From Acidimicrobiia bacterium (lineage in GTDB: Bacteria > Actinomycetota > Acidimicrobiia > Spongiisociales > Spongiisociaceae): a stretch of 64,000 nucleotides of DNA. Position 1 is the first letter of the stretch, and every line of letters starts with the position of its first letter. Under the pieces are notes generated by a model. It was not told the origin of the DNA, did not search any database, and saw only the letters and a list, made by a program, of their open reading frames with translations. A program made the translations under genes and the position numbers. Location of the stretch: the NCBI GenBank assembly GCA_965231815.1, contig OZ246890.1, positions 1,799,469-1,863,468 on the forward strand, read 5' to 3'. Positions 2,648-58,774 of the stretch are shown piece after piece.

Positions 2648-2770
2648 GGGACTGCTCCGGTCTGCGTGTGGTCTGGAAGTCGGGCGGGATGGGGGAGGGT
2701 ACGCCTCCACAGCCCCTAACGGAGGCCGTGGAGGCCTGTTAGTGCCAGCAACTCGCGCAGAATCGGTCGA

Positions 2771-2886
2771 GGAGGGTGCTGAGAAACCCCGTACAAAGGG
2801 GTTCGCCGGCTAATCAAAGCACCCTGACCAGGTAGTTTCACCATACAGCCAACCCCGCTGGATTCGTTTTTCAGCATTCTCCTAGC
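2771..2886 (+). repeat. Interspersed repeat family A copy A1 (diverged, hybrid core)
   Basis: GGAGGGTGCTGAGAAACCCCGTACAAAGGGGTTC ... GTTTTTCAGCATTCTCCTAG with imperfect terminal inverted repeats; intergenic between ilvC and leuA. Confidence 0.7.
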
Positions 2887-8058: not shown

Positions 8059-9741
8059 TCAGCCGTCTGTCACGCATCCCAAGCTGGCTGATGACACGGT
8101 TCGGACGTACTTGGCGAGGGTTCCTCTCGTAGCCTTCGACGGGGGCGCCGTCCAGGCTGATCGCCTTCCGGCGAGTTCGGCGTCCGGTACGTGGAGGGTG
8201 ATGGTGCGGGCTGTGGCGTCGATCGAGATCCGGTCGCCCTGCTCTACCAGTGCCAGCGGGCCACCTTCCTGAGCTTCGGGGCTCACATGTCCCATGATGA
8301 ATCCATGGGACCCGCCGGAGAACCGGCCATCCGTGATCAGGGCGACGTCTTGGCCCAGTCCGGCGCCCATGATGGCCGAGGTGGGGGTGAGCATCTCCGG
8401 CATTCCCGGACCACCTTTGGGGCCCTCGTAGCGGATCAGGATCACTGAGCCGGGGGTGATCTCGCCCCGCTCGAGTGCTTCCAGCATGTCCTCCTCGCTG
8501 TCGTAGGGCAGGGCGACGCCGCTGAAGGACAGACCTTCCTTGCCGGTGATCTTGGCTACGGCGCCCTCGGGGGCGAGGTTCCCGCGGAGTATCTGGATGT
8601 GCCCTGAATCCTTGATCGGGCTATCCCAATCGGCGACCACCTGCTGACCCTCGGAGAGTGCAGGTAGGTCGGAAAGATTCTCGCGCAAGGTCCGTCCGGT
8701 GACGGTCATGCAGTCACCGTCAATGGCGCCCCGCTCCAGGAGCATGCGGAGCACCGCAGGCGTACCTCCCACCGTGTGAAGATCGGCCATTACATACTTC
8801 CCGGAGGGCTTGAGGTCGGCCAGGTAGGGAGTGCGGTCGCTGACAGCTTGGAAGTCCTCGATGTGTAGCTCCACACCGGCGGAGTGCGCCATGGCAATCA
8901 GGTGCAGGACCGCATTGGTGGAGCCGCCTAGGACCATGGTGACCGTCATGGCGTTCTCGAAAGCGGCTCGGGTCATGATGTCGCTCGGCTTGATGTCCTC
9001 CTCCATTAGCCGCCGCACCGCCGCTCCGGCCGCCAGACATTCGGCTGCCTTGCCGTCATCGAGCGCAGGCGTGGAGGAACTGTAGGGAAGGGACATGCCC
9101 AGTGTCTCGATCGCTACCGCCATCGTGTTGGCGGTGTACATCCCTCCGCAAGCGCCGGCCCCCGGGCACGCATTGCGGACGATATCGAGGCGGTCCGCCT
9201 CGTCTAGTCGTCCGGCGATGTATTCACCGTACGACTGGAAGGCCGAAACTATGTCGATCGGATTACCGTGACGGTCGGTTCCGGGCTGAATGGTTCCACC
9301 GTAGATCATCACCGACGGCCGGTTCAATCGGGACATCGCCATCACCGCTCCGGGCATGTTCTTGTCACAGCCCGGAATGGAGATGTTGGCGTCATACCAC
9401 TGGGCGCTCATTACCGTCTCGATCGAATCCGCGATCAGATCCCGTGACTGGAGCGAGTAGGACATGCCTTCGGTCCCCATCGACATGCCATCGGAGACCC
9501 CGATGGTATTGAAGCGCATGCCTACCAGCCCGGCCCGGGTAACCCCTTCCTTGACCAGGGAAGCCAGATGGTCGAGGTGCATGTTGCAGCTGTTCCCCTC
9601 GTACCACATGGAAGCGATTCCCACCTGGGCTTTGGACATGTCCTCCGTGGTGAGGCCGGATGCGTAAAGCATCGCTTGGGATCCGCCCTGCGATCTTTCC
9701 TGAGTTATACGTCTGCTGATGAGGTTGATGGGTTGTGGCAT
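8059..9741 (-). CDS. ilvD: Dihydroxy-acid dehydratase
   Basis: IlvD/EDD family N-terminus and full-length body. Confidence 0.9.
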
Positions 9742-9754
9742 GCTCCGATCTTAG

Positions 9755-9962
9755 CCCCGATTATTCATGGATGGAGGTTTGGGGGATGAGTGGAGTAGAA
9801 CCATATTCGCACCCTGACCAGGCAATACAGCTATCGGAGTTCCCCATTCGGGTCCGGTGTAGAGATTCACCTGTCGGGTGAACGGCGGGTTTCTCCTGAT
9901 ACTCGGGTTGAACAGGCGCTACATGCCTCGGTGTGTGGGAAACCTGAATAATCAGGGCTAGA
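9755..9962 (+). repeat. Interspersed repeat family B copy B1
   Basis: CCCCGATTATTCATGGATGGAGG ... GGTGTGTGGGAAACCTGAATAATCAGGGCTAG; near-identical copies at 43626 and 44975 and a reverse copy at 54099. Confidence 0.7.
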
Positions 9963-10250
9963 GCGTGCGGGGAATGGTCGGGACTGTCGCCCCGACCGTG
10001 TCGAGTAACGGCTCGGGAGAGTCTTCGGGCGGGCCGGAGTTCCCGACGGGTTACTCTGCTGGGGATGTGTACCGCACACCTGGATCGTTTTCGCTACTCC
10101 TGCCGGGGTTGTGGATGCGTGCCTATATGGTGACGTCGGTGAGAGCCGGATTCCTCCTTCAGCCCGACGTTCCTCATCCCTCATCGATCCGTCTGAAGTC
10201 TGTAGTGCCCGGGGCTAGCCTTTCCTCTGACCTTTGAGCTTTGTGAGATT

Positions 10251-13200
10251 GTGAAGGGAATGCGTGTGGTCGATATTCCCAAGTGCCCAAGATGTGACCA
10301 CGAGATGGTCTTGCGTACGGCGCGGAAAGGCGCGAGGGCCGGGAGCCGGTTTTGGGGGTGTAGCACTTTCCCGCGGTGCAGAGGAACGCGGAAGTATATC
10401 GGCAATGGTCGCGCGCATCCCCGGCGTGGTGTGAAGGTTGGGGTCGCTGGTCCGACCTCAACCTCAGATCAATCTCGCGAGACGTTCGTCCGGCGTTGCG
10501 GTTCGGGGTGTCCTGTACATGTGGCTTCCGAGGGGTTGGCTAATTCGCTGCGGAAGGCTCGTGTGGATTGGTCAGACGGCACCACATCGACCTATCGGAA
10601 GCTGGGGTGGAGCGCTGAGTACGCGACGGCGGGGGCTTCTCTACGATCGATAGGCCTCAACGGTGTGGCTGCCTTGTCCAACTGCTGGTTGGCGAGCGAC
10701 CGCGCCGGTAGTCTTCCGGATGAGGACTCTCTGCGCGTGCTGGGCGTGATGGGGAAACTCTTGCGCCGTGGCGTTGCGCCACCTCTACATCCTGAATCCG
10801 AACGGACATTGCTTAGTTCTGTCGGGCTAGACGATCTTCTCATATCCGGCCCCCTGCCGGGCGACGTGTCTCCCACACTCCGATCCGCGCACCGTGTGGA
10901 TCGAGCGGCATTCGACGCCATTCAAGGAGACCAGGTTGAGGTAGAGCGCGGCTTGGTCGAGTCTGCGGATGAGGAACGTCTGGTCAGTTGGATGATTGAG
11001 CATCACGCGTGGGCGGCACGCTGGCTGGTGCCGCAGGCCTCGTTCGACCGTTTACTACAGGCGGGAGGACATAGGAAAACGGGAAACCGTAGGTGCGACT
11101 TCCTCTGGGCGCCGCCCGGTGTTTCTCCAGTAGTGATCGAGGTAGACGGCGCTCAGCACGAACAGCAAGTGTTGGCTGATACAGAGAGGGACCGGCTCCT
11201 GCGGTCGATTGGTATTCGTACGATTCGTGTTCCTACTAGCGAGCTTCAGGATGGACACGGCCATGCCCTTGATCGGGTGTCGACCGTGGTTTCCCGTATC
11301 GGAGGACCAGCCACTAGACGGTATATGCCCGCCTCGGACACCGATGTGCGTCTGGTTTGGGGCGCGATCCAGGTCCATCGTTTCGTTCTGGGTTTGTGCG
11401 AGTCGCTACGACGGGGATTCCTACGCGGAGATACTTGGGTCGTCGAGGTCGAGGATCCCACGGGTACGGCTGTGGATCTGGTCGCCCCTTACTTGGAGAC
11501 TCTTTACGCGCTTGATCGCCTCTGGGCTACCAGTTCGGTAGCGCCTGAGCGGGTCCTGCTCACTACGCCCACCGGACCGATCCTCTTGCAGCGCACATCC
11601 GAGGGTCGATATGAACGTACAACGGTCGGGACGGAGGATCGGGCGAGAAGGCCGCAGGTGCGGATGCTTCTCCAATGCGACCTCACCTCTTGCCAGCCGA
11701 TTCCTGACGCAGATGTCACACCGACGGTTGTGCTCAGATCCACCGGTGTGCCCTTTCTGATGTCCGACCCGGGGACAGTCGCTACTAGGCGAGATCGTGT
11801 CAGCCTGGAGGGCGAAGGGGTGCGGGACGCCATGACGGCTCTCCTCCGGGCAGTGTTCGCCAAGCGCGACTTCCGTGAAGGACAGTACGAAGCGATCTGC
11901 GAGGTGATGGCGGGAAGGGACTGCGCCGTGCTTCTTCCGACCGGTGCCGGCAAGAGCCTCGTCTACCAGTTCGCCGGGCTGTTTCTTCCCGGCCGGTGTC
12001 TGGTGGTCGATCCCCTGGTAGCGCTCATCGAGGACCAAGTCGAAGGGCTACACCGCTACGGAATCGACCGTGTCGAGGGCATCACACACGACATAGTCAG
12101 CAGAGGTGACGCAAGTACAATAATGAAAGCGATCGCAGAAGCTGACGTGTACTTCATGCTGGTCGCGCCTGAACGTCTGCAGATACCGGACTTTCGCGAG
12201 ACGTTGCGGGAACTAGCGGCTGGGACACCGGTCAACCTAGCCGTTGTAGATGAAGCCCATTGCGTGTCCGAGTGGGGACATGACTATCGCCACTCGTATC
12301 TCAGCCTGGGCCGGGTCTTGCGTGTTTTGTGTGAGGACTCAGCCAAAGAGCCCCCACCGTTGCTTGCGCTCACGGGGACCGCCTCGCGGGCTGTGCTAAG
12401 AGATGTGCTGTTTCAGCTCGAGATTCGGCAGGTGTCGGACAACTCCATAGTACGACCTGAGACGTTCGACCGTCCTGAACTCAACTATCACGTAGTGTCC
12501 ATCGACGTCAACTACCGTATGCCTCGGCTTCGTAGTGAATTACGGAGGCTACCGGCTCTCTTCGGGGAGCCTAGGTCCGCGTTCTTCGAGCCGGCGGGCA
12601 AGAACACCTTCCCCGGTCTGGTCTTTGTACCGACCGTCAACGGCTTCCCTTCACTCGAGAAGATCACCAAACTGACGGAAGAGGTCATTCCCTCGGTCAG
12701 GATGTTCTCGGGTAAGGTGCCGCGGGGTTTCAATCAGACGCGGTATAAGTCCGAGAAGCGGAGGAATGCCCGTCTATTCATGAACAACTCATCTGTAGCA
12801 CTCGTGTCCACGAAAGCCTTCGGTATGGGCATCGACAAACCGGACATTCGCTGGGTGGTGCACCACATGCTTCCCGGTTCTATCGAGTCCTACTACCAGG
12901 AGGTCGGACGAGCCGGCCGTAATGGAGACCCGGCGCATTGTGTGTTGATGATTAGCGAGTACGACCCGAGTCGTAACCGACAACTGCTGGCCGAGGACCG
13001 CTCTTTGGAGTCTGCACGTGAACGGCACGGCCGCATTCGGCGGTCTGAGCGTGACGATGTGACCACTGCCCTGTTTTTCCATCTATCCAATTTCGCAGGG
13101 ATAGACACCGAAGTGTCCGTTCTCGTGGAGGTAGCGGCTGCGCTAGCGCCCGGGGCGGAACGCCGAAATATCGAGCTACCTTTCAAAGGGGATCGATCAA

Positions 13201-14102
13201 AGCGGGAACGAGCCCTTCACCGTCTCTCGATTCTGGGTGTGGTGAGCGACTATCTCGTCAGATTCAGAGCAGAGACCTTTGTAGTAACCGTTGCCGGAGT
13301 TAGGCCCGACACGGTCGGCGAAGCGTTGGAAGAGTTCGTCAGGCGTAGCCAGCCTGGACTGTTGACTGAGATCAAAGACCGCGTCGGACGGCACGACGAC
13401 CTCATGACTGCAATCGAGGGCTGTGGGCGTGAACTGATCAAGTTCGTATACCGCACCGTCGAGCAAACACGCCGCCGCTCCCTCAGAGAGATGTGGCTAG
13501 CCGCACACGCCGCCGCGCGGAGCAACAATCCCAACCGAGAGCTCCGCCGTCGAATACTCGACTACATGACCGAAGGTGATGTCACCCCTGTCATGCTCCG
13601 CCTGGCGGAAGAGTCCCATTTCAGGTTTTCCGACTGGGTATCGGCGTGGGAATCAATGGAGGGCGACTCAGACGCCCGGGAGTGGCGAGCCGCGGCAGCC
13701 CGTCTGCTCGGCTCCTACCCAACTCATCCCGGCCTGCTGGTGTCGCGGGCCCTACCCGAAGTTCTGTTGGACGACGGTGACCCGAATGAGTTCGAGTCGA
13801 ACCTGCGAGAAGCGTTTCAGTCGGCCAAGAGTGAGTATCAGGCAGACGAAGCAGACACTGTCGGCGCCGTCCGCCTGATTCTCGAACGCGTAATGGAGGA
13901 GCGCCCACTCTGGGGATCTGCCGTGGCCGGCGCGGCTTACTACGCCGGAGTGTCCGACGCAGACGATACCGACTCGTCGGCAACGACCCACACCTCGCGT
14001 GAGAGTTGGCCGATCGCGGCCTTCACTCTCGCCGAAGGCGTTGAGGTTGCTATCTCACTTACACGGGCAGTCCTGGACATCTATAGAGAGGACCGACAGT
14101 GA
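10251..14102 (+). CDS. Multidomain protein: topoisomerase-type C4 zinc finger + DUF559 (Vsr-like PD-(D/E)xK endonuclease) + RecQ-family SF2 helicase + unassigned C-terminal region
   Basis: N-terminal CPRCDHEM ... CSTFPRC; central PVVIEVDGAQHE ... DRLLRSIGIRTIRV (DUF559); helicase motifs LLPTGAGKSL, VVDEAHCVSEWGHDYR, VSTKAFGMGIDKPDIRWVVHHMLPGSIESYYQEVGRAGRNG; GTG start. Confidence 0.8.
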   Translation: MKGMRVVDIPKCPRCDHEMVLRTARKGARAGSRFWGCSTFPRCRGTRKYIGNGRAHPRRGVKVGVAGPTSTSDQSRETFVRRCGSGCPVHVASEGLANSLRKARVDWSDGTTSTYRKLGWSAEYATAGASLRSIGLNGVAALSNCWLASDRAGSLPDEDSLRVLGVMGKLLRRGVAPPLHPESERTLLSSVGLDDLLISGPLPGDVSPTLRSAHRVDRAAFDAIQGDQVEVERGLVESADEERLVSWMIEHHAWAARWLVPQASFDRLLQAGGHRKTGNRRCDFLWAPPGVSPVVIEVDGAQHEQQVLADTERDRLLRSIGIRTIRVPTSELQDGHGHALDRVSTVVSRIGGPATRRYMPASDTDVRLVWGAIQVHRFVLGLCESLRRGFLRGDTWVVEVEDPTGTAVDLVAPYLETLYALDRLWATSSVAPERVLLTTPTGPILLQRTSEGRYERTTVGTEDRARRPQVRMLLQCDLTSCQPIPDADVTPTVVLRSTGVPFLMSDPGTVATRRDRVSLEGEGVRDAMTALLRAVFAKRDFREGQYEAICEVMAGRDCAVLLPTGAGKSLVYQFAGLFLPGRCLVVDPLVALIEDQVEGLHRYGIDRVEGITHDIVSRGDASTIMKAIAEADVYFMLVAPERLQIPDFRETLRELAAGTPVNLAVVDEAHCVSEWGHDYRHSYLSLGRVLRVLCEDSAKEPPPLLALTGTASRAVLRDVLFQLEIRQVSDNSIVRPETFDRPELNYHVVSIDVNYRMPRLRSELRRLPALFGEPRSAFFEPAGKNTFPGLVFVPTVNGFPSLEKITKLTEEVIPSVRMFSGKVPRGFNQTRYKSEKRRNARLFMNNSSVALVSTKAFGMGIDKPDIRWVVHHMLPGSIESYYQEVGRAGRNGDPAHCVLMISEYDPSRNRQLLAEDRSLESARERHGRIRRSERDDVTTALFFHLSNFAGIDTEVSVLVEVAAALAPGAERRNIELPFKGDRSKRERALHRLSILGVVSDYLVRFRAETFVVTVAGVRPDTVGEALEEFVRRSQPGLLTEIKDRVGRHDDLMTAIEGCGRELIKFVYRTVEQTRRRSLREMWLAAHAAARSNNPNRELRRRILDYMTEGDVTPVMLRLAEESHFRFSDWVSAWESMEGDSDAREWRAAAARLLGSYPTHPGLLVSRALPEVLLDDGDPNEFESNLREAFQSAKSEYQADEADTVGAVRLILERVMEERPLWGSAVAGAAYYAGVSDADDTDSSATTHTSRESWPIAAFTLAEGVEVAISLTRAVLDIYREDRQ

Positions 14103-14674
14103 CCGATGGCAACATTGTCGAATTCGAAACCGTACACCGCCGCTTCGGGGAGGCCGTCGAAGCTCTCAAGCAGCTGTCCGAGCTGATGGGTGGGCTACGC
14201 CAGGCCGAAAAGGTGAAAGCGCGAACCGCGGCGACTATGTCCGACGCCTCCGATCGCCTTCGAGAAACGTCCGCAACCCTAGCGTCGTATTGCGAACTCT
14301 TGCGCTCGGCGTTGGCTTCAACGATTCAAGCCCTGCAGTCCGCCGAGAATCTAGCGACCGGGGCTGAGCTATCAGCGATCCGAACCGAGGTGGCCTCCAA
14401 TAAGGCAGCCCTTGCGCACCTAGTCGAGGCCGAAGATTCTCGCAACGTCAAGCTTGCCGACTTGGCTAACCGACAGAACACGATCGCCGACACAGTCGAG
14501 ACAATCCAGAATAGGATCGACGGAGCTCTCTCTCAGGCGCAACAATCTCGAGACAATGCCCTCTCCGAACTCACGGAAACCAAGAACCGACTCGAGATAC
14601 TCGAAATCCGCCTCAGCGGACTACCGCCCAAAATCCGCCGCAAGTACGACCTAGACAACCTTTCACCCTCCTAA
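14099..14674 (+). CDS. Coiled-coil protein, translationally coupled to the upstream helicase gene
   Basis: GTG start overlaps the upstream TGA (GTGA); 191 aa, heptad-like Ala/Leu/Glu/Arg-rich sequence, no catalytic motif recognised. Confidence 0.6.
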   Translation: MTDGNIVEFETVHRRFGEAVEALKQLSELMGGLRQAEKVKARTAATMSDASDRLRETSATLASYCELLRSALASTIQALQSAENLATGAELSAIRTEVASNKAALAHLVEAEDSRNVKLADLANRQNTIADTVETIQNRIDGALSQAQQSRDNALSELTETKNRLEILEIRLSGLPPKIRRKYDLDNLSPS

Positions 14675-14678
14675 CCCG

Positions 14679-15437
14679 ATGCTGATCGTCAGCGACGTTC
14701 ATGCCGCCTTCGCCGAGTTGGCCGCGGTGGCAGGCCTGGGAGAGCCGCTGCTGGTTTTGGGTGATCTGCTCAACTTCGTCGACTACCGCACCGGCGCCGG
14801 CATTGTTGGCGACGTATACGGGCGCGATCATGTGACGGAGTTCATCCGGAATCGCAAGAAAGGTGATTGGGATGCAAACCGACGCTTGTGGCGGAGGACG
14901 ACCGCCGGAAGGTCCGCGGAACTAGCGGCTCGAACCCGTGAGAGGGTGCTCGAGCAGTACGCAGCCGCTCGGCGTGCGCTGGACGGCGCCGACGCCTACG
15001 TAACGTTCGGGAACGTGGACTGGCCTGACGAGATGAGGGCGTGCTTGTCGAACGTCGCCCGGATAGTCGACGGTGAGGTGGTCGAGATCGAGGGTTACTC
15101 GGTGGGTTTTGCGGGCGGCGGGGTACCGACACCCGCCAACGCGCGGGGAGAGGTGTCACACGAGGCAATGGCCGAAAAGTTGGAGGGACTGGGTGCGGTC
15201 GACATACTCTGTACCCACGTAGCCCCTTCGATTGCTCCCTTGCAGCGAGACGTCATCACCGGTGTTCTGGAGCGATCGTCAACGGCGGTACTGGAGTACC
15301 TGCTCGCCTACCAACCGTCTTTCCACTACTTCGGAGACGTACACCAACCACAGGCGAACATGTGGAGGGTGGGCAGGACGCTATGCCGCAACGTGGGGTA
15401 TTTCCGCGCCACCGCCCGTCCGGTACGCCACGGCTAG
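14679..15437 (+). CDS. Calcineurin-like metallophosphoesterase
   Basis: DVH, GDLLN, GNVD, CTHVAP and GDVH metal-binding motifs; starts 5 nt after the previous stop. Confidence 0.75.
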   Translation: MLIVSDVHAAFAELAAVAGLGEPLLVLGDLLNFVDYRTGAGIVGDVYGRDHVTEFIRNRKKGDWDANRRLWRRTTAGRSAELAARTRERVLEQYAAARRALDGADAYVTFGNVDWPDEMRACLSNVARIVDGEVVEIEGYSVGFAGGGVPTPANARGEVSHEAMAEKLEGLGAVDILCTHVAPSIAPLQRDVITGVLERSSTAVLEYLLAYQPSFHYFGDVHQPQANMWRVGRTLCRNVGYFRATARPVRHG

Positions 15438-15763
15438 CCGCAGCCGCAGCCACCCCCGCCGCCGGCCGGGTTCTGGTTTATCACGCTGAATCCTTCACCC
15501 TGAGCGGTCTGGACGAAGTCGATTTCCACGCCGCGGACCGTTTCCCGAGCGGTGTTGGCCACGGCTACCTTGACGCCGTGGGCCTCTTCCACCTCGTAGG
15601 CGTCGTCGACCTCGGGCAGGAAGGCCAGACCGTAGACGGTTCGGCAGCATCCCTGGCCGGCCGGATAGACGTGCAGGTAAGAGCGGTCGACTTCCCCATC
15701 GGCAATCTCCAATACTTTCTCGGCTGCGGTAGAAGACAACGCCACCAGCGCTCCGTTACCCAT
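15434..15763 (-). CDS. erpA: Fe-S cluster insertion protein (HesB/IscA/ErpA family)
   Basis: LSSTAAEKVLEI ... GQGCCRTVYGLAF ... C-terminal GCGCG; start taken at MGNGAL. Confidence 0.8.
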   Translation of the reverse strand: MGNGALVALSSTAAEKVLEIADGEVDRSYLHVYPAGQGCCRTVYGLAFLPEVDDAYEVEEAHGVKVAVANTARETVRGVEIDFVQTAQGEGFSVINQNPAGGGGGCGCG

Positions 15764-15826
15764 TTCTAATCCCTTCCTTGGCGGTCTCGACGATCCTAGG
15801 ATATCTAAGCCGCCCATATTGACCCC

Positions 15827-16258
15827 GTGGCCTTACAGCCCATGTACTTCGAGCCCCGACAGATACTGAACTCCCAAGGCTATGCCGACCCTCCCGGTCC
15901 CGATAAGGGGGTTCTTCGCACCAGGTACATCGCCTTGGTGGAGGCCCGTCTTTACGATCGCAATGCTTCTGCCTTACAGCGCCAAGGGAGGCTGGCAACC
16001 TACGCACCATACGAGGGCCAGGAAGCGATCCAGATCGGAGCGGTAGCGCAGCTCCAGCCCGCGTGGCACCCCGATCATTCCTACGGTACGTCCGCCATCC
16101 TGTCGGTGGGGCGTTCCCATCCGAGACCGGTCGTAAGGGACGGTGCGGTTGCGATCGCTCACCAGTTTCCTCTGAGCCTTTCCTACGACCACCGCATAAT
16201 CGACGGAGCCGAGGGGCGCCGGTTCATGGCAGCGGTCACCGATGCATTGGAGAGCTAG
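15827..16258 (+). pseudogene. Deletion scar of a 2-oxoacid (branched-chain keto-acid/pyruvate) dehydrogenase operon: E1-alpha N-terminal fragment fused in frame to the E2 C-terminal ~50 aa
   Basis: ARLYDRNASALQRQGRLATYAPYEGQEAIQIGA (E1-alpha TPP region) followed by AILSVGRSHPRPVVRDGAVAIAHQFPLSLSYDHRIIDGAEGRRFM (E2 catalytic C-terminus) in a 143-aa ORF. Confidence 0.6.
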
Positions 16259-16260
16259 GA

Positions 16261-16372
16261 GGGTCCTGAAAAACGAATCTTACGGGGTTCGGCGGTTGGC
16301 AAACTGCCTGGTCATGGAGTTGTGGGTTAGCGGCCGAACCCCTTTGTGCGGGGTTTCTCAGCACCCTCCTAG
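16261..16372 (-). repeat. Interspersed repeat family A copy A2 (reverse orientation)
   Basis: Reverse complement matches A3/A4 almost exactly. Confidence 0.75.
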
Positions 16373-16439
16373 TTCCTCCGGTTGAGCGGTACCTCTTCGG
16401 AGGGCTCGAGGACGTTCCCGGATATCTATCCTTGCCGAC

Positions 16440-17477
16440 GTGAAGGTAGGGGTACGCAGATCAAGCAATGCCGGACGTAGGCCGAAGGATCCGTGGGCTC
16501 GGTTCAAAGCAGGGGTCGGTCTGCTGGCGCTGGTGCTGGCAGTGGGCACGGGCGGGTACATGGCGCTCGGACTCGGACTGCTCGATGCCCTCTACCAGAC
16601 GGTAATCACCATCTCGACGGTAGGTTATAGGGAGATAGGGGAGGTCGCGGAGCGGTACAAGGTGTTCACCGTCCTCCTGATCCTATTCGGTACCGGTACC
16701 AGTTTGTATACGTTAGGGGTGCTGATCGAGACCATGTTCGAAGGACGATTGGATAACCAGTTTCGGACACGCCGAATGCAGCGCAAGATCGATCGGCTGA
16801 GCGGCCATGTGGTCCTGTGTGGTTACGGTCAGGTGGGCAGGGCCATCGAGGGCGAGTTGCTCGACGCCGGGGAGGCCGTGGTGGCGGTGGATTCTCGTGA
16901 GCCCGAGTATCAGCAGTTTCCCGAAGACCACCGGATGGTCTTGGGAGACGCCACCGAGGACTCGATCCTCCTCCAAGCCGGCCTTGATCGCGCCAAGGTC
17001 TTGGTGGTGGCCCTGAACTCCGATGTCGATAACCTATTCATAACTCTTACCGCGCGGGCCATCAACCCGGAACTCTTCATAGTTGCCCGGGCCAATGAAT
17101 CGCTCACGCACCCGAAGCTGAGGAGAGCAGGCGCCGATCGAGTGGTTAATCCGCACCAGATCGGGGGTACGCGTATGGCGGCCCTCGTTTCCCATCCCGA
17201 GGTGGCGGAGTTTCTCGATGTGGTCATGCAGGATGGTGAATTCAAGGTACGGCTTGCTGAAGTTCCGATCACCGACGATTCACCGTTGGCTAATCGTTCG
17301 CTCGCGGAATGCAGGATCCGCACCAAGACCGGCGCTTCGGTGTTGTCGGTGCAGAGAGAGCAGAGTTATTTGACCAATCCAGACGGATCATTCGTTTTCG
17401 CGCCGGGGGACCTGCTTATTTCGTTGGGAACGGATGCGCAGTTGATCGCTCTTCGCGCTCAGGCGCGTGCAACTTGA
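16440..17477 (+). CDS. Potassium-channel family protein with RCK/TrkA-N and TrkA-C domains (MthK-like), non-canonical filter
   Basis: Pore helix and filter TISTVGYRE (canonical TVGYGD); Rossmann VVLCGYGQVGR. Confidence 0.8.
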   Translation: MKVGVRRSSNAGRRPKDPWARFKAGVGLLALVLAVGTGGYMALGLGLLDALYQTVITISTVGYREIGEVAERYKVFTVLLILFGTGTSLYTLGVLIETMFEGRLDNQFRTRRMQRKIDRLSGHVVLCGYGQVGRAIEGELLDAGEAVVAVDSREPEYQQFPEDHRMVLGDATEDSILLQAGLDRAKVLVVALNSDVDNLFITLTARAINPELFIVARANESLTHPKLRRAGADRVVNPHQIGGTRMAALVSHPEVAEFLDVVMQDGEFKVRLAEVPITDDSPLANRSLAECRIRTKTGASVLSVQREQSYLTNPDGSFVFAPGDLLISLGTDAQLIALRAQARAT

Positions 17478-17497
17478 GTCGTCCTGCTGAGCGGCGC

Positions 17498-18145
17498 TTG
17501 ACGGAGCGGGATCCCGGCCGAGTGCTATGGGCTCTTTGTCGGCCCCCGGTGCGATTACTTGCAGCCTGGCTCCCGTACTCCTCGGTCAGGAGGTGCCCAC
17601 CACCGGCAGGGGCGTATGTCGCAGTTATCAACCACCTTTCGCATCTGGATCCGCCGGTTGTCGCGCTGGCGCTTCGGCGTCCGATCAGATTCCTGGCGCT
17701 CGACGAACTCTGGGGTAATTCGGCAATGCTGGATTGGGTCTTGAATACCTTCGGGGCGGTTCCTTTCCCACGAGAAGGTAGGTATCCGGTCGGGGCACTC
17801 AGGCAAGCCGTCAAACACCTCCGATCCGGGCAAATCGTCGGAGTGTTCCCGGAAGGTCGAAGGGTGCGCGACTGGGGAGATGCGCCGATCACCAAGGGAG
17901 CGGCCTGGCTGGCGTTGCAGGCGAACGTCCCTCTGGTACCGGTCGCAATCCGGGGTACCCAGCATGCCATGCCGCTGGATAAGGTACGGATACGCCGAGC
18001 ACCGGTACGGGTAGTGGTCGGATGTCCCCTAGAGCCGATCCGGTTTGCGGATCTCCCGGATCCGGTAGCGGCCCTTACCCGGGCCGCGGCCTCAGCCCTC
18101 GATCAGGAGCTGCGCCTAATACGGGGAGGTGTTGTCGGCGACTAG
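17498..18145 (+). CDS. plsC: 1-acyl-sn-glycerol-3-phosphate acyltransferase
   Basis: NHLSHLDP and FPEGRR acyltransferase motifs; start uncertain (TTG 17498 or GTG 17522). Confidence 0.75.
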   Translation: MTERDPGRVLWALCRPPVRLLAAWLPYSSVRRCPPPAGAYVAVINHLSHLDPPVVALALRRPIRFLALDELWGNSAMLDWVLNTFGAVPFPREGRYPVGALRQAVKHLRSGQIVGVFPEGRRVRDWGDAPITKGAAWLALQANVPLVPVAIRGTQHAMPLDKVRIRRAPVRVVVGCPLEPIRFADLPDPVAALTRAAASALDQELRLIRGGVVGD

Positions 18146-18220
18146 TCCGTCCCGTTGGTTTCAGGTGGAGGGGATGCCCGAACGTCGGTGGGAGTGGTCA
18201 TTGCTATTATCAAGAATCGC

Positions 18221-18293
18221 GCCGGGGTAGCTCAGTCGGCAGAGCGGCTCATTCGTAATGAGCAGGTCAGGGGTTCGATTCCCCTCTCCGGCT
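18221..18293 (+). tRNA. tRNA-Thr (anticodon CGT)
   Basis: Cloverleaf folded by hand: acceptor GCCGGGG/CTCCGGC, anticodon stem GCTCA/TGAGC, loop TTCGTAA, T-arm AGGGG-TTCGATT-CCCCT. Confidence 0.9.
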
Positions 18294-18389
18294 CCGTACT
18301 ACTTCGGATTCGTCGTGATCTCGCGCCGTTTATCGTATGAATCGGCGGGGTATCAGAAGGGTGGGTGCAGTCGACCATGGCGCAGGACG

Positions 18390-18974
18390 ATGGCTGATAG
18401 GCAGAACTTTGAAAGGGATGCCTTGGTGCACGCCCATAGGCTCTATTCGGCGGCGCTGAGGATGACCCGGAACCGGGCCGATGCCGAGGATCTGGTACAG
18501 GAGACCTTCCTGAAGGCTTACCGTGGCTACGACGGGTTCACGGAAGGGACGAACCTCCGAGCCTGGCTCTACCGGATACTCACCAATACCTTCATCAACC
18601 GCTACCGGAAAGGTCAGCGCAGGCCTAAGGAGGTCGAACTCGACGAGGTGGAGGATCTCTATCTCTACCGAAGGTTGGCGCCCACGGTGTCCAACCGGGT
18701 GGCCCGTTCAGCGGAGGATCAGGTCTTCGAGTCGCTGGAGGGGGCGGATGTCAGGGACGCTATCGATAAGCTTCCGGGTCCGTACCGGATGCCGTTGCTG
18801 CTAGTAGGTTTGGAGGGATTCTCATACAAGGAGACCGCCGCCATGCTGGATATTCCCATCGGTACGGTCATGTCCCGGTTGCATCGCGGAAGAAAGATGC
18901 TGCAGAGGCTATTGTGGGAGCAGGCGAAGGAATACGGGATCGCCACTCCGACCGAGGACGCCGATGAAGGATAA
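18390..18974 (+). CDS. ECF (sigma-70 group 4) RNA polymerase sigma factor, SigR/SigH/SigE-like
   Basis: Region 2 [12 protein letters not shown] and region 4 [23 protein letters not shown]; followed by a ZAS anti-sigma gene. Confidence 0.85.
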
Positions 18975-19206
18975 GGACAGATGTATCCGGGCGCTCACAC
19001 GCGTCTATTCCTACCTGGACGGAGAGATCCGGACCATGCGCAGGGTGCGAATACGGCTGCACCTGCGGAATTGCATCAACTGCGAGCGGGTTTACGAGTT
19101 CGAGCGACGCTTTATGGGTTTCGTTCGTGAGCGTATCCGGGTTGAGGCGCCGCCGGAGGTCGTTGAGCGTATCCGGGTATCCATCCGCGACTTGAGACGT
19201 CGCTGA
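18964..19206 (+). CDS. Zinc-binding anti-sigma factor (ZAS family, RsrA/RshA-like)
   Basis: 80 aa with C7 ... HLRNCINC (H-x3-C-x2-C); overlaps the sigma gene end. Confidence 0.75.
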
Positions 19207-19215
19207 TCCGATAGC

Positions 19216-20157
19216 TTGATGAACCGGGTGGTTACCGCCCTTCGCGCCGGGATACGATCATCAACCACCGGGCTGTTCAGCCATGTCCCCTATCCGTTGC
19301 AAAATACCTTGGAGTACCAGGGAGATCACGGGGTGTGCGGTCCAGATTCGGCGTCGTGGCCGATCATCGGTGATGTTGCTGCGTTCATCGGCGGGATCCG
19401 TGCCTTGCTCGTGCAAAGCGCCCATCCTGAAGTGGTAGCCGGAGTCGCGGATCATTCCAACTATCGAGTGGATCCGTTAGGTCGTCTGTCCCGGACGGCG
19501 GCGTACGTCACCGCCACCACCTTCGGCGCCCTGCCTGAAGTGTGTGAGGCTATCGATCGGGTCAAGGTCGCGCACGCCGGCGTGGCGGGCAGGTCACATC
19601 GTGGGCGACCGTACGCGGCGTCCGTTCCCGCCCTCTCCGCCTGGGTTCACAACGTGCTTACGGATTCGTTCCTGGCGGCGTACCAGGCCTACGGCCCTCA
19701 ACCCCTCGCGACGGGCCAGGCAGACCGCTTCGTTCGTGAACAGGCCGTGATCGGTAGAATGCTCGATTCCCTTCCCGTTCCGGAGGATGCTCCCTCATTG
19801 AGTGCATGGGTGGAGGACCATCCCGACCTAGGCTCATCGCCGGGGATGGCGGCAACCGTGGAGTTCTTGAGGAATCCTCCGCTCGATCCGGTCCAGAAGG
19901 TGGGATACCGACTTCTCTATACGGGAGCGGTCGCGATACTCCCGGACCGGATCCGGCGAATCCTCGGACGGAAAGATCTTCCCGGATCCGCAACCGCCGC
20001 CCTGGTCACGGTCAGGTTCCTGAGATGGGCGATGGGTTCATCTCCGTCATGGAGGCTGGCGCTCATCAGAACGGGAAGAGAGGTTCCACCGGGCCTGTTC
20101 CGCAGGTCGGTTCCTCCGGCGATCGGTCGGGATGCCCGATTTCAGGGAGTTCCATGA
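19216..20157 (+). CDS. MpaB/DUF2236-family oxygenase-like protein
   Basis: Pattern resembles DUF2236 (IGDVAAFIGGIRALLVQSAHPEV). Confidence 0.6.
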   Translation: MMNRVVTALRAGIRSSTTGLFSHVPYPLQNTLEYQGDHGVCGPDSASWPIIGDVAAFIGGIRALLVQSAHPEVVAGVADHSNYRVDPLGRLSRTAAYVTATTFGALPEVCEAIDRVKVAHAGVAGRSHRGRPYAASVPALSAWVHNVLTDSFLAAYQAYGPQPLATGQADRFVREQAVIGRMLDSLPVPEDAPSLSAWVEDHPDLGSSPGMAATVEFLRNPPLDPVQKVGYRLLYTGAVAILPDRIRRILGRKDLPGSATAALVTVRFLRWAMGSSPSWRLALIRTGREVPPGLFRRSVPPAIGRDARFQGVP

Positions 20158-28513: not shown

Positions 28514-30262
28514 ATGAACTTGACCAGCAGCAACATCGAGCGCCGACTGCACCTCGGCGAAGACAGCCGTTGGGAGTTCAAAGCGATTGTCTTCACCGGG
28601 ACAGCGGTCAAAGGCCCACGCCAGCAGGATCTTGCGGATGAATTGTCGGCGTTCGCCAACGGACGAGGAGGGTTCCTTCTGTGCGGCGTAACGGATGACG
28701 GCCGAGTGCAGGGGATGACGCGAGCGCAGATGGACGCTCTGGAGCGGGTGCTGGTCGAAGCGTGCATCTCGTCGGTAAAGCCCTCTATCGACGTGGAGAT
28801 ATCTCGAATGGAGGCTGGTGGCGGGTCGCTCTTGGTGGTTGAAGTTCCGCCGGGGTACGCCCAGCACGACAGCCCGGGCGGCTGCTACCGCCGGGTGGGC
28901 AGTTCCAAACGCAGGATGACCAGCGACCAGTGTCTCCGGCTCGCTCAACAGAGAGGACAGGCCCGGTTTGTATGGTTTGATCGGCAGCCGGTGCCCGGCA
29001 CGGGGATCGAAACCCTGACCCATAGGCTGTGGAAACCATTGATCAGCGCGACAGGCGCCGCGGACACCCTGACGGCTCTCCAAAACCTGCGCCTGCTGGT
29101 CGGAGACGACGGTGACGTGTTGCGGGCGACGGTAGCAGGGATACTGCTGTGTACCGATGATCCGCAACGTTGGTTCCCTAATGCGTCCATAATGGCCACT
29201 CTCTACTCGGGCCGTGATCGAGCCTCCGGGCAGCACGACGCGCAGGAGATCACCGGTCCGCTCCATGAGCAGATCGCCGGGGCGGTACGGTTCGTGTTGC
29301 GCAACATGCGAGTGGCTGCTCGCAAGACACCCGGACGGGTTGACATACCTCAATACAGTATCGAGGCGGTATTCGAGGCCGTGGTGAACGCGGTGGCGCA
29401 CCGCGACTATTCCGTTCAGGGACAACGGATCAGGCTGTCGATGTTCGCGGATCGGCTGGAGATCGACTCACCGGGCGCTCTTCCCAACGGCATGACCATT
29501 GAGAACATGGAGGTCAGCCAATCCACACGAAACGACGTCATTGCGTCGGTCTTCGGGCGGGTTGCCGTAGCCGGCATCCCCGGTTCGCAGAACCGTCAAT
29601 TCCTCATGGAACGCCGAGGTGACGGGGTGGCCGTCATTCTTAGGCGAACCCGGGAGACATCCGGTCGGGATCCGGTTTACCGGCTGATCGACGAGTCCAA
29701 CCTCGGGCTGACTATCCCGGCCGCCTCCCTCGAGTTTGTCCCGGCCCATGCCACCGTCTCGGTTCGATCCTCGGCCGGTCCTCTCCCCGGCGCTGATGTC
29801 CTGATCCTATTCCCGAACAACACCTGGAAACGGGCCGTGACCGGCGAGAACGGGGAGACCACCGTCGCGCTGTACACGACGCATCTGCCCATGAGGGTGT
29901 TCGTAGCAGCCACCGGCTACTCGGCGCATGTGGGTAAGGAATGGATTCCCGGCCGGGGTGGGATGGTTGTTGAGCTTGATGATCTCCCCGCCGGCGGGGC
30001 GGTAATCTTTCCGGAGGGAACCGGATATGTTCCGGGATTGGCAGGGCGATTGAACCCAATCCGCGATGGCCATGACAGAACCTACCTGTACGCGTCCAAC
30101 GTCGCAATCGAGCGGGGACGCCCGCAGCCGGCCCATTTCGTACTCGGGGAAGAACTAAGCCTCACCGACGCCGAAGGCCGGGAGGTGTTGGTTCGTATGG
30201 TTGACATAGCCGGTAGCTCGGCGCTGCTTGAGTACCGGTTTCCGGTTGCTAGCCCTGATTAA
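28514..30262 (+). CDS. Schlafen-like AlbA_2 (divergent AAA) + HATPase_c_4 domain protein with ~190-aa extra C-terminal region
   Basis: N-terminal EFK ... ELSAFANGRGGFLLCGVTDDG; central NAVAHRDYSVQGQRIRLSMFADRLEIDSPGALPNGMT. Confidence 0.7.
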   Translation: MNLTSSNIERRLHLGEDSRWEFKAIVFTGTAVKGPRQQDLADELSAFANGRGGFLLCGVTDDGRVQGMTRAQMDALERVLVEACISSVKPSIDVEISRMEAGGGSLLVVEVPPGYAQHDSPGGCYRRVGSSKRRMTSDQCLRLAQQRGQARFVWFDRQPVPGTGIETLTHRLWKPLISATGAADTLTALQNLRLLVGDDGDVLRATVAGILLCTDDPQRWFPNASIMATLYSGRDRASGQHDAQEITGPLHEQIAGAVRFVLRNMRVAARKTPGRVDIPQYSIEAVFEAVVNAVAHRDYSVQGQRIRLSMFADRLEIDSPGALPNGMTIENMEVSQSTRNDVIASVFGRVAVAGIPGSQNRQFLMERRGDGVAVILRRTRETSGRDPVYRLIDESNLGLTIPAASLEFVPAHATVSVRSSAGPLPGADVLILFPNNTWKRAVTGENGETTVALYTTHLPMRVFVAATGYSAHVGKEWIPGRGGMVVELDDLPAGGAVIFPEGTGYVPGLAGRLNPIRDGHDRTYLYASNVAIERGRPQPAHFVLGEELSLTDAEGREVLVRMVDIAGSSALLEYRFPVASPD

Positions 30263-31100: not shown

Positions 31101-31127
31101 AGGTGGTCAGGACCATGGCGGAGGCTA

Positions 31128-31243
31128 GGAGGGTGCTGAGAAACCCCGTACAAAGGGGTTCACCCGCTAACCCACAACTCCATGACCAGGCGGTTTGCCG
31201 ACCACCGAACCCCGTAAGATTCGTTTTTCAGGACTCTCCTAGG
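31128..31243 (+). repeat. Interspersed repeat family A copy A3
   Basis: CTAGGAGGGTGCTGAGAAACCCCGTACAAAGGGGTTCACCCGCTAACCCACAACTCCATGACCAGGCGGTTTGCC ... TTTTTCAGGACTCTCCTAG; between DUF2520 gene and panC. Confidence 0.75.
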
Positions 31244-43130: not shown

Positions 43131-43246
43131 TAGGAGGTGCTGAGAAACCCCGTACAAAGGGGTTCAGCCGCTAACCCACAACTCCATGACCAGGCGGTTT
43201 GCCGACCACCGAACCCCGTGAGATTCGTTTTTGAGCACCCTCCCAG
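43131..43246 (+). repeat. Interspersed repeat family A copy A4
   Basis: Near-identical to A3; preceded at ~43105-43125 by an inverted fragment of the family B core. Confidence 0.75.
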
Positions 43247-43625
43247 TGTCCCGAGTCGGAAGTTCCGTGCACATCGCGAGTAACCACCCGGCCTGCTTCC
43301 GGCACAGACCCGGGTTAAGATCGCGAAAACCGAACTACCCGGATGGGACCCCTCTCAGTGGGACCCACCCCCGGCCGCCGCCTCCTCAGCGTCGAAACGC
43401 GTCCCGCTAACCCCTCGCCTTGCCAAACAGAGGCAAGGCAGAAGAAAACAAGCAAGATGATCCCAACCCCGGTCCGGTCGGTACCTGACCCAACCGTCGG
43501 TGCTTTACGGTTACCCACCAGTATGCAGACCGGGTATGACAGATTTCCCCGGCCGTCGGGTTACGCCCGTCGGAAAGATTTCGCGGTCTCCCGAACACAA
43601 GCGAAACAACGATTCACGACACTAG

Positions 43626-43832
43626 GCCCGATTATTCATGGATGGAGGTTTGGAGGATGAGTGGAGTAGACCATATTCGCGCCCTGACCAGGCAATACAG
43701 CTATCGGCGTTTCCCATCCCGGTCCTATTTAGAGATTCACCTATCGGGTGAACGGTGGGTAGCCCCCCAAAACTCGGGTGGAACTGGCGTAACATGCCTC
43801 GGTGTGTGGGAAACCTGAATAATCAGGGCTAG
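43626..43832 (+). repeat. Interspersed repeat family B copy B2
   Basis: Full-length B copy just downstream of the polyprenyl synthase gene. Confidence 0.7.
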
Positions 43833-43887
43833 GCCGCTTTGCCATTCATCGGCATAACCCCTGCCCCATGAAGGATCGGGGCCTGCC

Positions 43888-44883: not shown

Positions 44884-44974
44884 TTCGTTTGCTCCGCCTC
44901 GGGAAAAGGTCTTCCCTATGCTAAAGACATGTGCATTGATCGCCACCATCGTCGGGTCGATCCACTTTGGCGTA

Positions 44975-45184
44975 ACCCCTATTTTTGATGGATGGGGGTT
45001 TGGGTATGGGTGGAGGAAGCCACAATAGCGTCCTGACCAGGCAATACACCTATCGGCGTTTCCCGTCCCGGTCCGGTGTGGAGATGCACCCGCCGGGTGA
45101 AACCGGTCGGTTCCTACTAAATAATCAGGTTGAACCGGCGATACATGCCGCGGTGTGTGGGAAACCCGAACGATCAGGGTTAAA
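44975..45184 (+). repeat. Interspersed repeat family B copy B3
   Basis: Full-length B copy between the polyprenyl synthase start and clpC. Confidence 0.7.
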
Positions 45185-53989: not shown

Positions 53990-54098
53990 CGGATTCTCCC
54001 TTCCCTGTTGACAGGATTCCGGCGGGTCAGCTCGACAATCCGGTGCTTCACCGCTCTTGTCAACCCGAACGTCACGAAACGGTTCGAGCCGACCACTC

Positions 54099-54304
54099 CT
54101 AGCCCTGATTATTCAGGTTTCCCGCACACCGAGGCATGTAACACCAGTTCCAACCCGAGTATACGGCGAAACCCACCATTCACCCGGAGGTGAATCTCTG
54201 CACCGGCCCGGGATGGGAGACACCGATAGTTGTATTGCCTGGTCAGGGGCGTGATTACGGCGTAATCGACTCATCTGTCAAACCCCCATCCATGAATAAT
54301 CGGG
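54099..54304 (-). repeat. Interspersed repeat family B copy B4 (reverse orientation)
   Basis: CTAGCCCTGATTATTCAGGTTTCCCGCACACCGAGGCATG ... CCATCCATGAATAATCGGGG. Confidence 0.7.
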
Positions 54305-54332
54305 GCTGAAGTAGGACTGATGGTTATCGTTC

Positions 54333-57889: not shown

Positions 57890-58774
57890 ATGATTGAAAC
57901 GCGGGTTGTTCGTAGTTCCGATGCCGCTGGTGGGTCGGATGGATCGGAGGGTGGTTTGGAAGAGACCGGAGAGGTGTCGGTTGCTCCGGCCCGTCAGGTT
58001 CCCAAGAAGGCAGCCGCTAAGAAAGCTGCCGCTAAGAAAGCTGCCGCTAAGAAGGCACCTGCCAAGAAGGCTGCCGCTAAGAAGGCACCTGCCAAGAAGG
58101 CTGCCGCTAAGAAGGCTGCCGCTAAGAGGGCTCCCGCCAAGAAGGCTGCCCCTAAGAAAGCTGCCGCCAAGAGGGCTCCCGCCAAGAAAGCGCCCGTGAG
58201 GAGGGCCCCACCCAAGCGCCGGAATCCGCGGTCACGCAAAGCTTCCCGGAAGTCGTCTTCAACCAATAGGCGGAAGATTTCATTCAAAGTAGGCGACAAG
58301 GTAGTCCATCCTCATCACGGAGCTGCGTTGATCACCAGACAAGTTGAACAGGAGGTCGTGGGCGAGAGTCGTTCCTACTTCGAACTCCAAGTTGCAACCG
58401 AACAACTCACCGTGTTCGTGCCGGTAACGTCGATGGATCAGATTATCCGGCCGGTGATCTCCAAGACCGCCGCTACCAAAGTGATGCGCATCTTCAAGGA
58501 AGACCCTCAGTCATCGGGAAACAACTGGAGTCGATGGTACAAGGTGCTCAACGAGAAGATGACCTCCGGCGACATCTACCAAGTGGCGGAGGTGGTCAGG
58601 GATCTGACCTATTCCCAGCACACCAAAGGTATTTCCCCGGCCCTCAAACGCATGCTGTCACGGGCACGGGTAACGCTGACCAGTGAACTCGCCTATGCCC
58701 TCAGTATCAGCACGGAAGAGGCGGTCGAGCGTCTTGATCGGGCTCTCCCCGATGCGGAGTCCGTAGGCGTTTAG
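57890..58774 (+). CDS. carD: CarD/CdnL-family RNA polymerase-binding regulator with ~130-aa N-terminal Lys/Ala-repeat extension
   Basis: [21 protein letters not shown]-interacting domain and [28 protein letters not shown]; N-terminal [10 protein letters not shown] repeats; followed by ispD-ispF-cysS as in mycobacteria. Confidence 0.8.
58005..58195 (+). repeat. Tandem 15-bp coding repeat (GCCGCTAAGAAAGCT-like, AAKKA pentapeptide) inside carD
   Basis: About 12 consecutive near-identical 15-nt units. Confidence 0.7.

Follow-up and report, generated by a model that had tools for sequence, protein, structure and literature searches.

What does an open reading frame represent that begins as one subunit of a multienzyme complex and ends as another? 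On the + strand of the window (the whole 64,000-nucleotide stretch of DNA analysed here), a 143-codon open reading frame (ORF) extends from 15827 to 16258. An initial annotation, made from the sequence alone, read it as a fragment of E1-alpha (E1α) joined in frame to the C-terminus of E2, the relic of a 2-oxoacid dehydrogenase operon. Such a frame could be a decayed gene, a small protein with a role of its own, the ancestral state of the locus or a product of sequencing and assembly. Profile searches, synteny with relatives and protein database searches indicate that the ORF is very probably a young pseudogene, the scar of a single deletion of ~2.7 kb inside a PDH-type operon with a heterotetrameric E1 (pdhA-pdhB-pdhC).

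Fragments of two enzymes in one reading frame

The resemblance of the two halves of the ORF to E1α and E2 is real and far beyond chance. On the E1α side, residues 24-78 of the ORF correspond to positions 20-74 of the 341 positions of the NCBIfam model TIGR03181 (PDH_E1_alph_x; E=3.9e-13), the Pfam family PF00676 is matched more weakly (E=0.0033, below its cutoff), the PDB E1α chains 1w85/3duf are matched at E ~3.5e-4, and the head aligns over 73 of 73 residues with an intact E1α of 345 aa (P0143) at 93% amino acid identity. On the E2 side, residues 87-142 correspond to positions 170-225 of 232 in PF00198 (E=1.7e-15; 57.5 bits versus a cutoff of 23), and the PDB E2 cores 1b5s/3duf are matched at E ~1e-8 in an alignment that includes the catalytic DHRxxDG motif, which reads SYDHRIIDGAEG in the ORF, exactly as in relatives. 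The fusion of an E1α fragment with an E2 C-terminus is thus borne out by both profiles.

The retained parts amount to 16% of the E1α profile and 24% of that of the E2 catalytic domain. As a whole E1α, the ORF falls far short (49 bits versus a cutoff of 411 for TIGR03181 and 16.9 versus 22 for PF00676); the complete CAT-like catalytic domain of E2, of ~230 residues, is likewise represented by positions 170-225 of PF00198 alone, and a Pfam profile search of the ORF detected neither the lipoyl domain (PF00364) nor the peripheral-subunit-binding domain (PF02817), both of which are present in the E2 of a relative with an intact operon (L084, below). The E1α fragment is the N-terminal segment carrying the GQEA motif. 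It had been annotated as a TPP-region fragment, but the TPP-binding motif GDG-X(~25)-NN is absent from the ORF, and its place, at about residues 152-183 of the E1α of L084 and L002 (FGDGATSEGDF...CQNNGWAIS), falls within the deleted segment.

The limits of the ORF also needed adjustment. The GTG at 15827, from which the 143 codons had been counted, is GTA in the closest relative (L083), whereas the ATG at 15842 coincides in alignments with the start codons of all orthologues and is the start chosen in the public gene call for this locus (P0001). The true start is therefore ATG 15842, giving a predicted product of 138 aa, and positions 15827 to 15841 (+) are a 5' extension of the longest frame that is probably untranslated. 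From the ATG onwards, the frame comprises codons 1-74 of a pdhA-like E1α gene in their original frame and behind their original upstream region (15842-16063, +), as established by collinearity with L083, the match to P0143 and TIGR03181, and codons 314-371 of a pdhC-like E2 gene with the DHRxxDG motif intact (16082-16255, +). The E2 portion had been put at about the last 50 residues. It is indeed the C-terminus but longer, with DNA of 64 codons retained, 58 of them in frame (16082-16255) and six out of frame (16065-16082).

An intact operon at the same position in relatives

Alignment to the intact operons of relatives, the check proposed with the initial annotation, placed the operon at the same position and allowed the junction to be mapped. 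The closest relative, L083 (5.5 kb; Logan ERR3887490; the contig that encodes P0143), is collinear with positions 12102-16063 of the window at 92.1% nucleotide identity over 3987 nt, the shared stretch covering the C-terminal part of a helicase gene, ORFs of 191 aa and 252 aa, a HesB-like gene and the beginning of E1α. Homology ends at window position 16063, which is position 3986 of L083 and codon 74 of E1α. Past this point L083 continues with an intact 345-aa E1α, followed by E1β up to the contig end.

More distant relatives from sponge metagenomes supply the remainder of the ancestral arrangement. Clean genes in one common order were found in L084 (GCA_026710435.1), L085 (JGI 3300027951) and L086 (MKWU01000295, of an assembly derived from the metagenome of the sponge Aplysina aerophoba, PMC5649159): HesB (-), ferredoxin (-), E1α (345 aa), E1β (324 aa), E2 (371 aa), M20 peptidase (-), cupin (-) and an Asp-protease-like gene, then, to the right, TrkA, acyltransferase, sigma, anti-sigma, MPAB and Zincin_2. 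The 70.9-kb contig L002, a 4x long-read assembly with frameshifts, carries HesB-like (-), ferredoxin (-), E1α, E1β and E2 genes and, 7 kb further, TrkA, acyltransferase, sigma-70, anti-sigma and MPAB genes in the order seen at window positions 16440-20157. A tRNA-Thr gene lies between the acyltransferase and sigma genes in L084-L086 and L002, again in the order of the window. When the HesB-like neighbour was used as an anchor in metagenome contigs, MKWU01000295 was the only locus recovered.

The window retains both synteny anchors, namely the HesB/IscA-like Fe-S biogenesis gene on the left (15434-15817, -; PF01521), which adjoins E1α in L083, L084-L086 and L002, and the TrkA-type K+ channel gene on the right (16440-17477, +; Pfam Ion_trans_2, TrkA_N and TrkA_C). 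On both sides of the operon the window is 73-80% identical to L084-L086 at the nucleotide level, and within the operon it aligns with them only at 15817-16053 and 16062-16256. BLASTN against L002 gave the same picture: the HesB gene, the first ~215 nt of E1α (in a match spanning 139 nt), the last 197 nt of E2, and TrkA onwards. The missing stretch measures ~2.7 kb (about 10223-12931 in L084 coordinates), close to the ~3 kb originally proposed, and synteny with L083, L084-L086 and L002 upholds the proposed loss of the bulk of E1α and E2 together with the entire E1β. It comprises E1α codons 75-345, the whole of E1β and E2 codons 1-307, lipoyl and subunit-binding domains included. A tblastn search of the 64-kb window found no other E1α, E1β or E2 sequence; the missing part has therefore not moved nearby.

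The lost operon appears to be best described as PDH-type (pdhABC-like), because the E1α of L084 passes the equivalog cutoff of TIGR03181 (421.8 versus 411.35 bits), and the substrate assignment is accordingly a predicted one. The earlier attribution to a 2-oxoacid dehydrogenase operon thus stands, and its BCKDH label gives way to PDH. In the intact operons of relatives the three genes overlap or abut one another. Compared with the α2β2-E1 pdhA-pdhB-pdhC system of Geobacillus stearothermophilus (1w85/3duf for E1, 1b5s for the E2 core; TIGR03181), the ORF corresponds to the 74 N-terminal residues of E1α and the 58-64 C-terminal residues of E2; ~87% of the coding sequence of such an operon is gone from the window, and with it the TPP motif, E1β, both the lipoyl and the subunit-binding domain and about three-quarters of the acyltransferase domain.

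These comparisons also bear on the direction of change. An ancestral short ORF, with the operon acquired or enlarged later in relatives, is a formal possibility, with nothing else in its favour, and its probability is close to nil. Full-length orthologues of E1α, 345-346 aa long, occur widely across the clade (at least 120 sequences of about 345 aa, at 61-100% identity, with the E1α of L002 as the query), and one stands intact at the syntenic position in L083, L084-L086 and L002. The operon occupies this position in four independent relatives, and both halves of the ORF are domain fragments unable to fold or act alone. The breadth of the orthologues, together with synteny, effectively refutes an ancestral short ORF and leaves loss from an intact operon as the preferred direction.

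A deletion junction in imperfect microhomology

The two genes meet at about 16059-16065 (+), some 40 nt before the position around 16100 where the junction had been placed. E1α homology ends at 16063 and homology to the E2 genes of L084, L002 and L001 (the last a truncated locus described below), which are ~76% identical on this side, begins at 16062-16065, inside a short stretch of imperfect microhomology (GCC(C)RCGG) that reads GCCCACGG in E1α and GCCGCGG in E2. Located 15-20 nt upstream of the junction, at 16034-16044 (+), is an 11-nt sequence, ATCGGAGCGGT (codons I-G-A-V), which is common to the E1α of L083 and the E2 of L084, L002 and L001 and stands in the same codon phase in both genes; through its I-G-A-V motif, BLASTP matches to E2 reach into the head of the ORF. 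Clean recombination at this shared sequence can be ruled out, as the window has 19 more E1α-type nucleotides after it.

Across the junction the chimera reads ...AVAQLQPAWHPDHSYGTS..., and the fusion forms a continuous ORF yet no clean in-frame join, so that the in-frame fusion described earlier is correct for the frame as a whole and incorrect for the joint itself. The first E2-derived DNA (16065-16082, +) encodes codons 308-313 in the wrong frame and is read as WHPDHS: its +1-frame translation is GTPIIP, which fits the E2 consensus GTPIIPYGTS just before YGTSAILS. Nucleotide alignment to L084, L002 and L001 requires a 1-nt gap at about 16080-16083 (CCNTAC→CCTAC), in a short homopolymer context. 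Through this gap, which falls ~17 nt beyond the junction, E2 codons 314-371 come to share the frame of E1α. The frame without the 1-nt deletion is likewise open, to 16269 (ORF 16063-16269).

A junction of this kind invites the suspicion that the organism keeps an intact operon, and that the deletion, or just the 1-nt indel, reflects an error of assembly or sequencing or belongs to a minority variant. The source contig (4.08 Mb) is apparently metagenome- or long-read-derived, related long-read contigs (L002, L105, L106 and L107) are full of frameshifts, the 1-nt gap, as stated, lies in a homopolymer context, and the 24-nt junction sequence has no exact match in JGI metagenome contigs. We nevertheless regard an artefact as very unlikely. 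No repeat at the breakpoints is long enough to collapse an assembly, the shared 11 nt being the sole candidate and lying upstream of the junction. The two retained pieces show equal divergence from all relatives, which rules out a chimera of two strains. In addition, the neighbouring genes of the window are long intact ORFs, and other, independent changes to the locus (its missing M20 peptidase and cupin genes and an inserted repeat, both detailed below) point to a region that has been genuinely remodelled. A real deletion in the genome of this organism thus remains the preferred reading.

A recent loss following long constraint

Compared with the closest relative, L083, genes of the window give dS values of 0.04 to 0.24. 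The E1α head gives dS 0.14, dN 0.031 and an omega of 0.22 (NG86), from only 12 substitutions. It differs from L083 at five amino acid positions, four of them window-specific. A comparison of 17 orthologues places three of the replacements at sites with little or no variation (15-16 of 17) or with small residues only (DRK→DRN, QEA[A/T/S/C]→QEAI and VAP→VAQ), a pattern that fits a constraint lifted part-way along a short branch.

The E2 tail records a longer history. It is 76% identical at the nucleotide level and 77-81% identical at the amino acid level to the tails of L084, L002 and L001, versus 68-71% amino acid identity for the neighbouring TrkA, acyltransferase and sigma genes, and shows dN of 0.11-0.13 against dS of ~1.2 with the DHRxxDG motif kept. 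For most of its history the tail appears to have been under selection. The deletion itself is recent, because the decay accumulated so far is small (omega of 0.22 in the head, DHRxxDG intact in the tail).

A chimera without a counterpart in the protein databases searched

The initial annotation named a genuine conserved small protein as the finding that would overturn its reading, and searches for one came back negative. A protein search with the ORF returned a single full-length match, the locus's own gene call P0001 (138 aa, on a 4,082,865-bp contig); all other matches covered the E2 tail only or the E1α head only. P0001 is a singleton cluster and the sole full-length match among 5.8e9 clustered and 1.84e9 representative proteins. 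A HMMER scan of the 1.84 billion representatives likewise gave one match at E≤1e-30, again P0001, the rest being head only or tail only, and a scan of genome contigs with the chimera recovered only distant E2 genes, via the generic YDHRIIDG pattern.

Six other E1α-head::E2-tail chimeras occur among the matches listed: P0247 (Candidatus Binatia), P0257, P0259, P0267, P0276 and P0279. Their architecture is that of the ORF, an E1α N-terminus followed by a C-terminal part of E2, but their breakpoints differ, they come from unrelated lineages, and their kinship with the ORF runs through the parent families only. They are singletons except for one five-member 90% cluster in Candidatus Binatia. Different breakpoints, unrelated lineages and tiny clusters therefore mark them as independent events rather than members of a family, and deletions between E1α and E2 within an operon appear to recur sporadically. 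Short E2 stubs on long contigs (P0012, P0014 and P0035) were considered as a conserved small-protein family and ruled out: each belongs to an operon of full length that frameshifts have broken up in a long-read assembly. The only true second stub is L001, on a 1.98-Mb contig, in which E2 residues 285-371 remain after a sharp breakpoint just downstream of tandem AACTAGC repeats, with defence-type genes as neighbours (DarT, TerB, BrxC/D-like and OLD-like). It is independent of the deletion in the window.

The distribution weighs on a further alternative, that the chimera is a functional new small protein, transcribed from the pdhA promoter and kept by selection, for example because its E2 segment docks on another E2 core. 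Several features are what such a protein would show: no stop codon interrupts the frame between the native start and the place of the native stop, the return of E2 to its own frame through the 1-nt deletion could reflect selection for read-through, the upstream region is apparently intact, the DHRxxDG motif and the tail are well preserved, the latter as conserved as neighbouring functional genes, and a second relative, L001, likewise retains only a 3' stub of E2. Against this, two very large protein searches found no second example of the chimera and the closest relative has an intact gene in its place; the fractions of the E1α and E2 profiles left are small, and window-specific replacements have struck conserved E1α positions. 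An open frame is in itself unremarkable here, given that the frame without the 1-nt deletion is also open (16063-16269), and the L001 stub differs in breakpoint and neighbourhood, just as the other chimeras are unrelated singletons. On balance a selected function is highly improbable. The C-terminal segment of E2 contributes strands and the terminal helix that make contacts in the E2 core. It is even harder to credit, however, that the chimera is expressed and kept open with its E2 segment binding, modulating or poisoning the E2 core of another complex in the cell. A pseudogene remains by far the better account of the ORF.

From pdhABC to a probable pseudogene

The observations are those expected of a pseudogene: ~2.7 kb has been lost, E2 codons 308-313 are out of frame next to a 1-nt indel, and the truncated form is conserved nowhere else, P0001 being its only full-length match. 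We propose that an ancestral pdhABC-type operon was located between the HesB-like and TrkA-type channel genes, and that one deletion fused E1α codon 74 to E2 codon 308, taking with it the TPP-binding part of E1α, the entire E1β gene and, from E2, the lipoyl domain, the subunit-binding domain and most of the catalytic domain. We infer illegitimate recombination, microhomology-mediated or of the slippage type, from the position of the breakpoints in short imperfect microhomology, 15-20 nt downstream of the shared 11-nt ATCGGAGCGGT; the order of events is an inference as well. At the raw junction the tail of E2 would have been out of register, and a 1-nt deletion 17 nt further along, arising either in the same error-prone repair event or as a later slip, would have restored its frame. 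With the frame restored, the ORF begins at the original start of pdhA and ends where the stop codon of pdhC used to be.

A chimeric polypeptide of 138 aa may still be made, since the pdhA upstream region is unchanged relative to L083. It is expected to be non-functional as an E1 or an E2, having neither set of elements that these activities need. A scan of positions 15300-16700 for consensus promoters and terminators found nothing.

Deletion-made chimeric pseudogenes are known from decaying and host-associated bacteria, for example as fused ORFs at the 'regions of difference' of mycobacteria. The present case shares with that class the head-to-tail fusion of genes on the same strand, breakpoints in microhomology, restriction to one lineage and an intact close relative, and differs from it in no respect of kind; what is specific to the window is the junction-proximal 1-nt deletion that restores the frame and the repeat that has replaced the stop codon. 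The relic would thus represent ordinary gene decay of a known kind and no new gene. Real but ordinary, it raises no new biological question. Its value is as a nucleotide-resolution record of what appears to be the recent loss of a PDH-type complex in one lineage, apparently of sponge-associated Acidimicrobiia-like bacteria, whereas a strain ~92% identical (L083) still has the operon, with E1α intact and E1β following up to the end of its contig. The loss is relevant both to metabolic reconstruction and to annotation: P0001, publicly listed as a 138-aa protein that has an E2 domain but no name, should carry a pseudogene flag.

Remodelling of the flanks

The locus is also a small example of wider remodelling, in which the deletion is accompanied by a repeat insertion and the loss of adjacent genes. 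The scar had been described as abutting a repeat, and it does so to the point that the repeat supplies the stop codon. This element ('repeat A'; 16255-16372, +) is a 118-nt palindromic MITE/REP-like repeat whose first bases provide the TAG of the relic (16256-16258). At the same point relatives have TGA followed by sequence unrelated to the window, so homology ends at the last sense codon; it restarts upstream of TrkA at about 16420, the GTG start at 16440 included. Four copies of repeat A, 82-94% identical, occur in the window, at 16255-16372 (+) and, in the opposite orientation, at 31125-31242, 43136-43246 and 2770-2886 (-). With its terminal inverted repeats of ~20 nt (CTAGGAGGGTGCTGA...), its folding as one long hairpin (-67.4 kcal/mol, z=-6.4), its small size and its presence in at least four intergenic copies per 64 kb, it resembles MITE/REP-like palindromic repeats. 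No clear target-site duplication was seen at the four copies, no Rfam family matched it, and no copies were present in any of the related loci fetched.

Separately from the deletion, the 118-nt hairpin repeat would have landed on the stop codon, and the downstream block of M20 peptidase and cupin genes would have been lost. L084 and L002 have both genes in the interval from E2 to TrkA; the window has neither, and tblastn detected no M20 peptidase, cupin, ferredoxin or Asp-protease sequence in it. The ferredoxin gene between HesB and E1α is missing from L083 as well.

Upstream of the operon lies an accessory module, which the initial annotation had tied to the rearrangement. It is not implicated: because L083 carries the module beside intact E1α and E1β genes, it can be ruled out as the cause of the deletion. 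The module consists of two small ORFs (191 aa and 252 aa) and a helicase gene (10251-14102) whose product combines a Zn-ribbon, DUF559 and a DEAD/Helicase_C core, with DpdF and PsyrT as its best PADLOC matches.

Junction of the relic and surrounding gene content

The chimeric relic (15827-16258, +), in which a pdhA-like E1α head runs into a pdhC-like E2 tail, carries at window positions 16034-16044 an 11-nt sequence, ATCGGAGCGGT (I-G-A-V), that E1α shares with E2 in identical form and at the same codon phase, the E2 genes being those of the related contigs L084, L002 and L001. Both breakpoints lie 15-20 nt downstream of this shared sequence, which may have aided misalignment but is not itself the crossover site. 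The relic's stop codon is derived from one copy of a 118-nt repeat.

Comparison of the flanks (window 15763-15915 and 16259-16486 versus 9577-9976 and 13127-15686 of L084, a more distant relative with the whole locus) shows that the interval between E2 and TrkA lacks, in the window, the genes for the M20 peptidase, the cupin and the Asp-protease-like protein. Neither the window nor L083, the closest relative contig, has the ferredoxin gene (Fer4_15) that lies in L084 between the HesB-like gene and E1α.

Truncated and chimeric pdh/bkd genes elsewhere

L001, a related 1.98-Mb contig, holds an E2 3' stub (10001-10264, considered with its flanks) that retains only residues 285-371. Its breakpoint is sharp and immediately follows tandem AACTAGC repeats, and its neighbours include genes for DarT, ADP-ribosylglycohydrolase, TerB, BrxC/D-like, DEAD helicase and OLD-like proteins. 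This stub is an event independent of the relic. Public databases contain further ORFs joining an E1α head to an E2 tail (P0247, P0257, P0259, P0267, P0276 and P0279), which differ in their breakpoints and occur sporadically in other, unrelated lineages; a 315-aa chimera of Candidatus Binatia is found on several contigs of up to 62 kb. The sporadic appearance of unrelated chimeras suggests that intra-operon deletions recur in pdh/bkd operons.

Dispersed repeats

The 118-nt repeat is palindromic and MITE/REP-like, with four copies in the window, at 16255-16372 (+), 31125-31242 (-), 43136-43246 (-) and 2770-2886 (-). It has terminal inverted repeats of ~20 nt (CTAGGAGGGTGCTGA...) and is predicted to fold into a single long hairpin at -67 kcal/mol (z=-6.4). 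No Rfam family matches it, and none of the related loci compared carries a copy. A second dispersed family, intergenic and ~210 nt long, also has four copies (9744-9961, 43623-43833 and 44973-45182, +; 54098-54316, -) with 67-100% identity, one of them situated between ilvD and the helicase module.

An accessory helicase module

The accessory module (10251-15437), common to the window and L083, encodes a 1283-aa protein combining a Topo-type Zn-ribbon, DUF559 and a DEAD/Helicase_C core, with DpdF and PsyrT as its top PADLOC matches (E down to 2e-89), and two ORFs of 191 aa and 252 aa with no Pfam match. Its position between ilv/leu genes and the HesB-like gene, together with its absence from L084 and L002, suggests a defence-type insertion. 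Over 12102-16063, dS between the window and L083 varies about six-fold between adjacent genes (0.24 for the helicase, 0.04 for the 191-aa ORF), a spread that hints at recombination mosaicism inside the module.

Elsewhere in the window, a gene at 28514-30262, surrounded by housekeeping genes, encodes a 582-aa product that combines the Schlafen AlbA_2 and HATPase_c_4 domains; it may be a further accessory gene of the defence or regulator type. Within ORF 57890-58774, at least 12 tandem 15-nt units (57972-58226) code for a repeat rich in alanine and lysine (AAKKA-type), which probably forms a basic tail of the histone-like or HU type.
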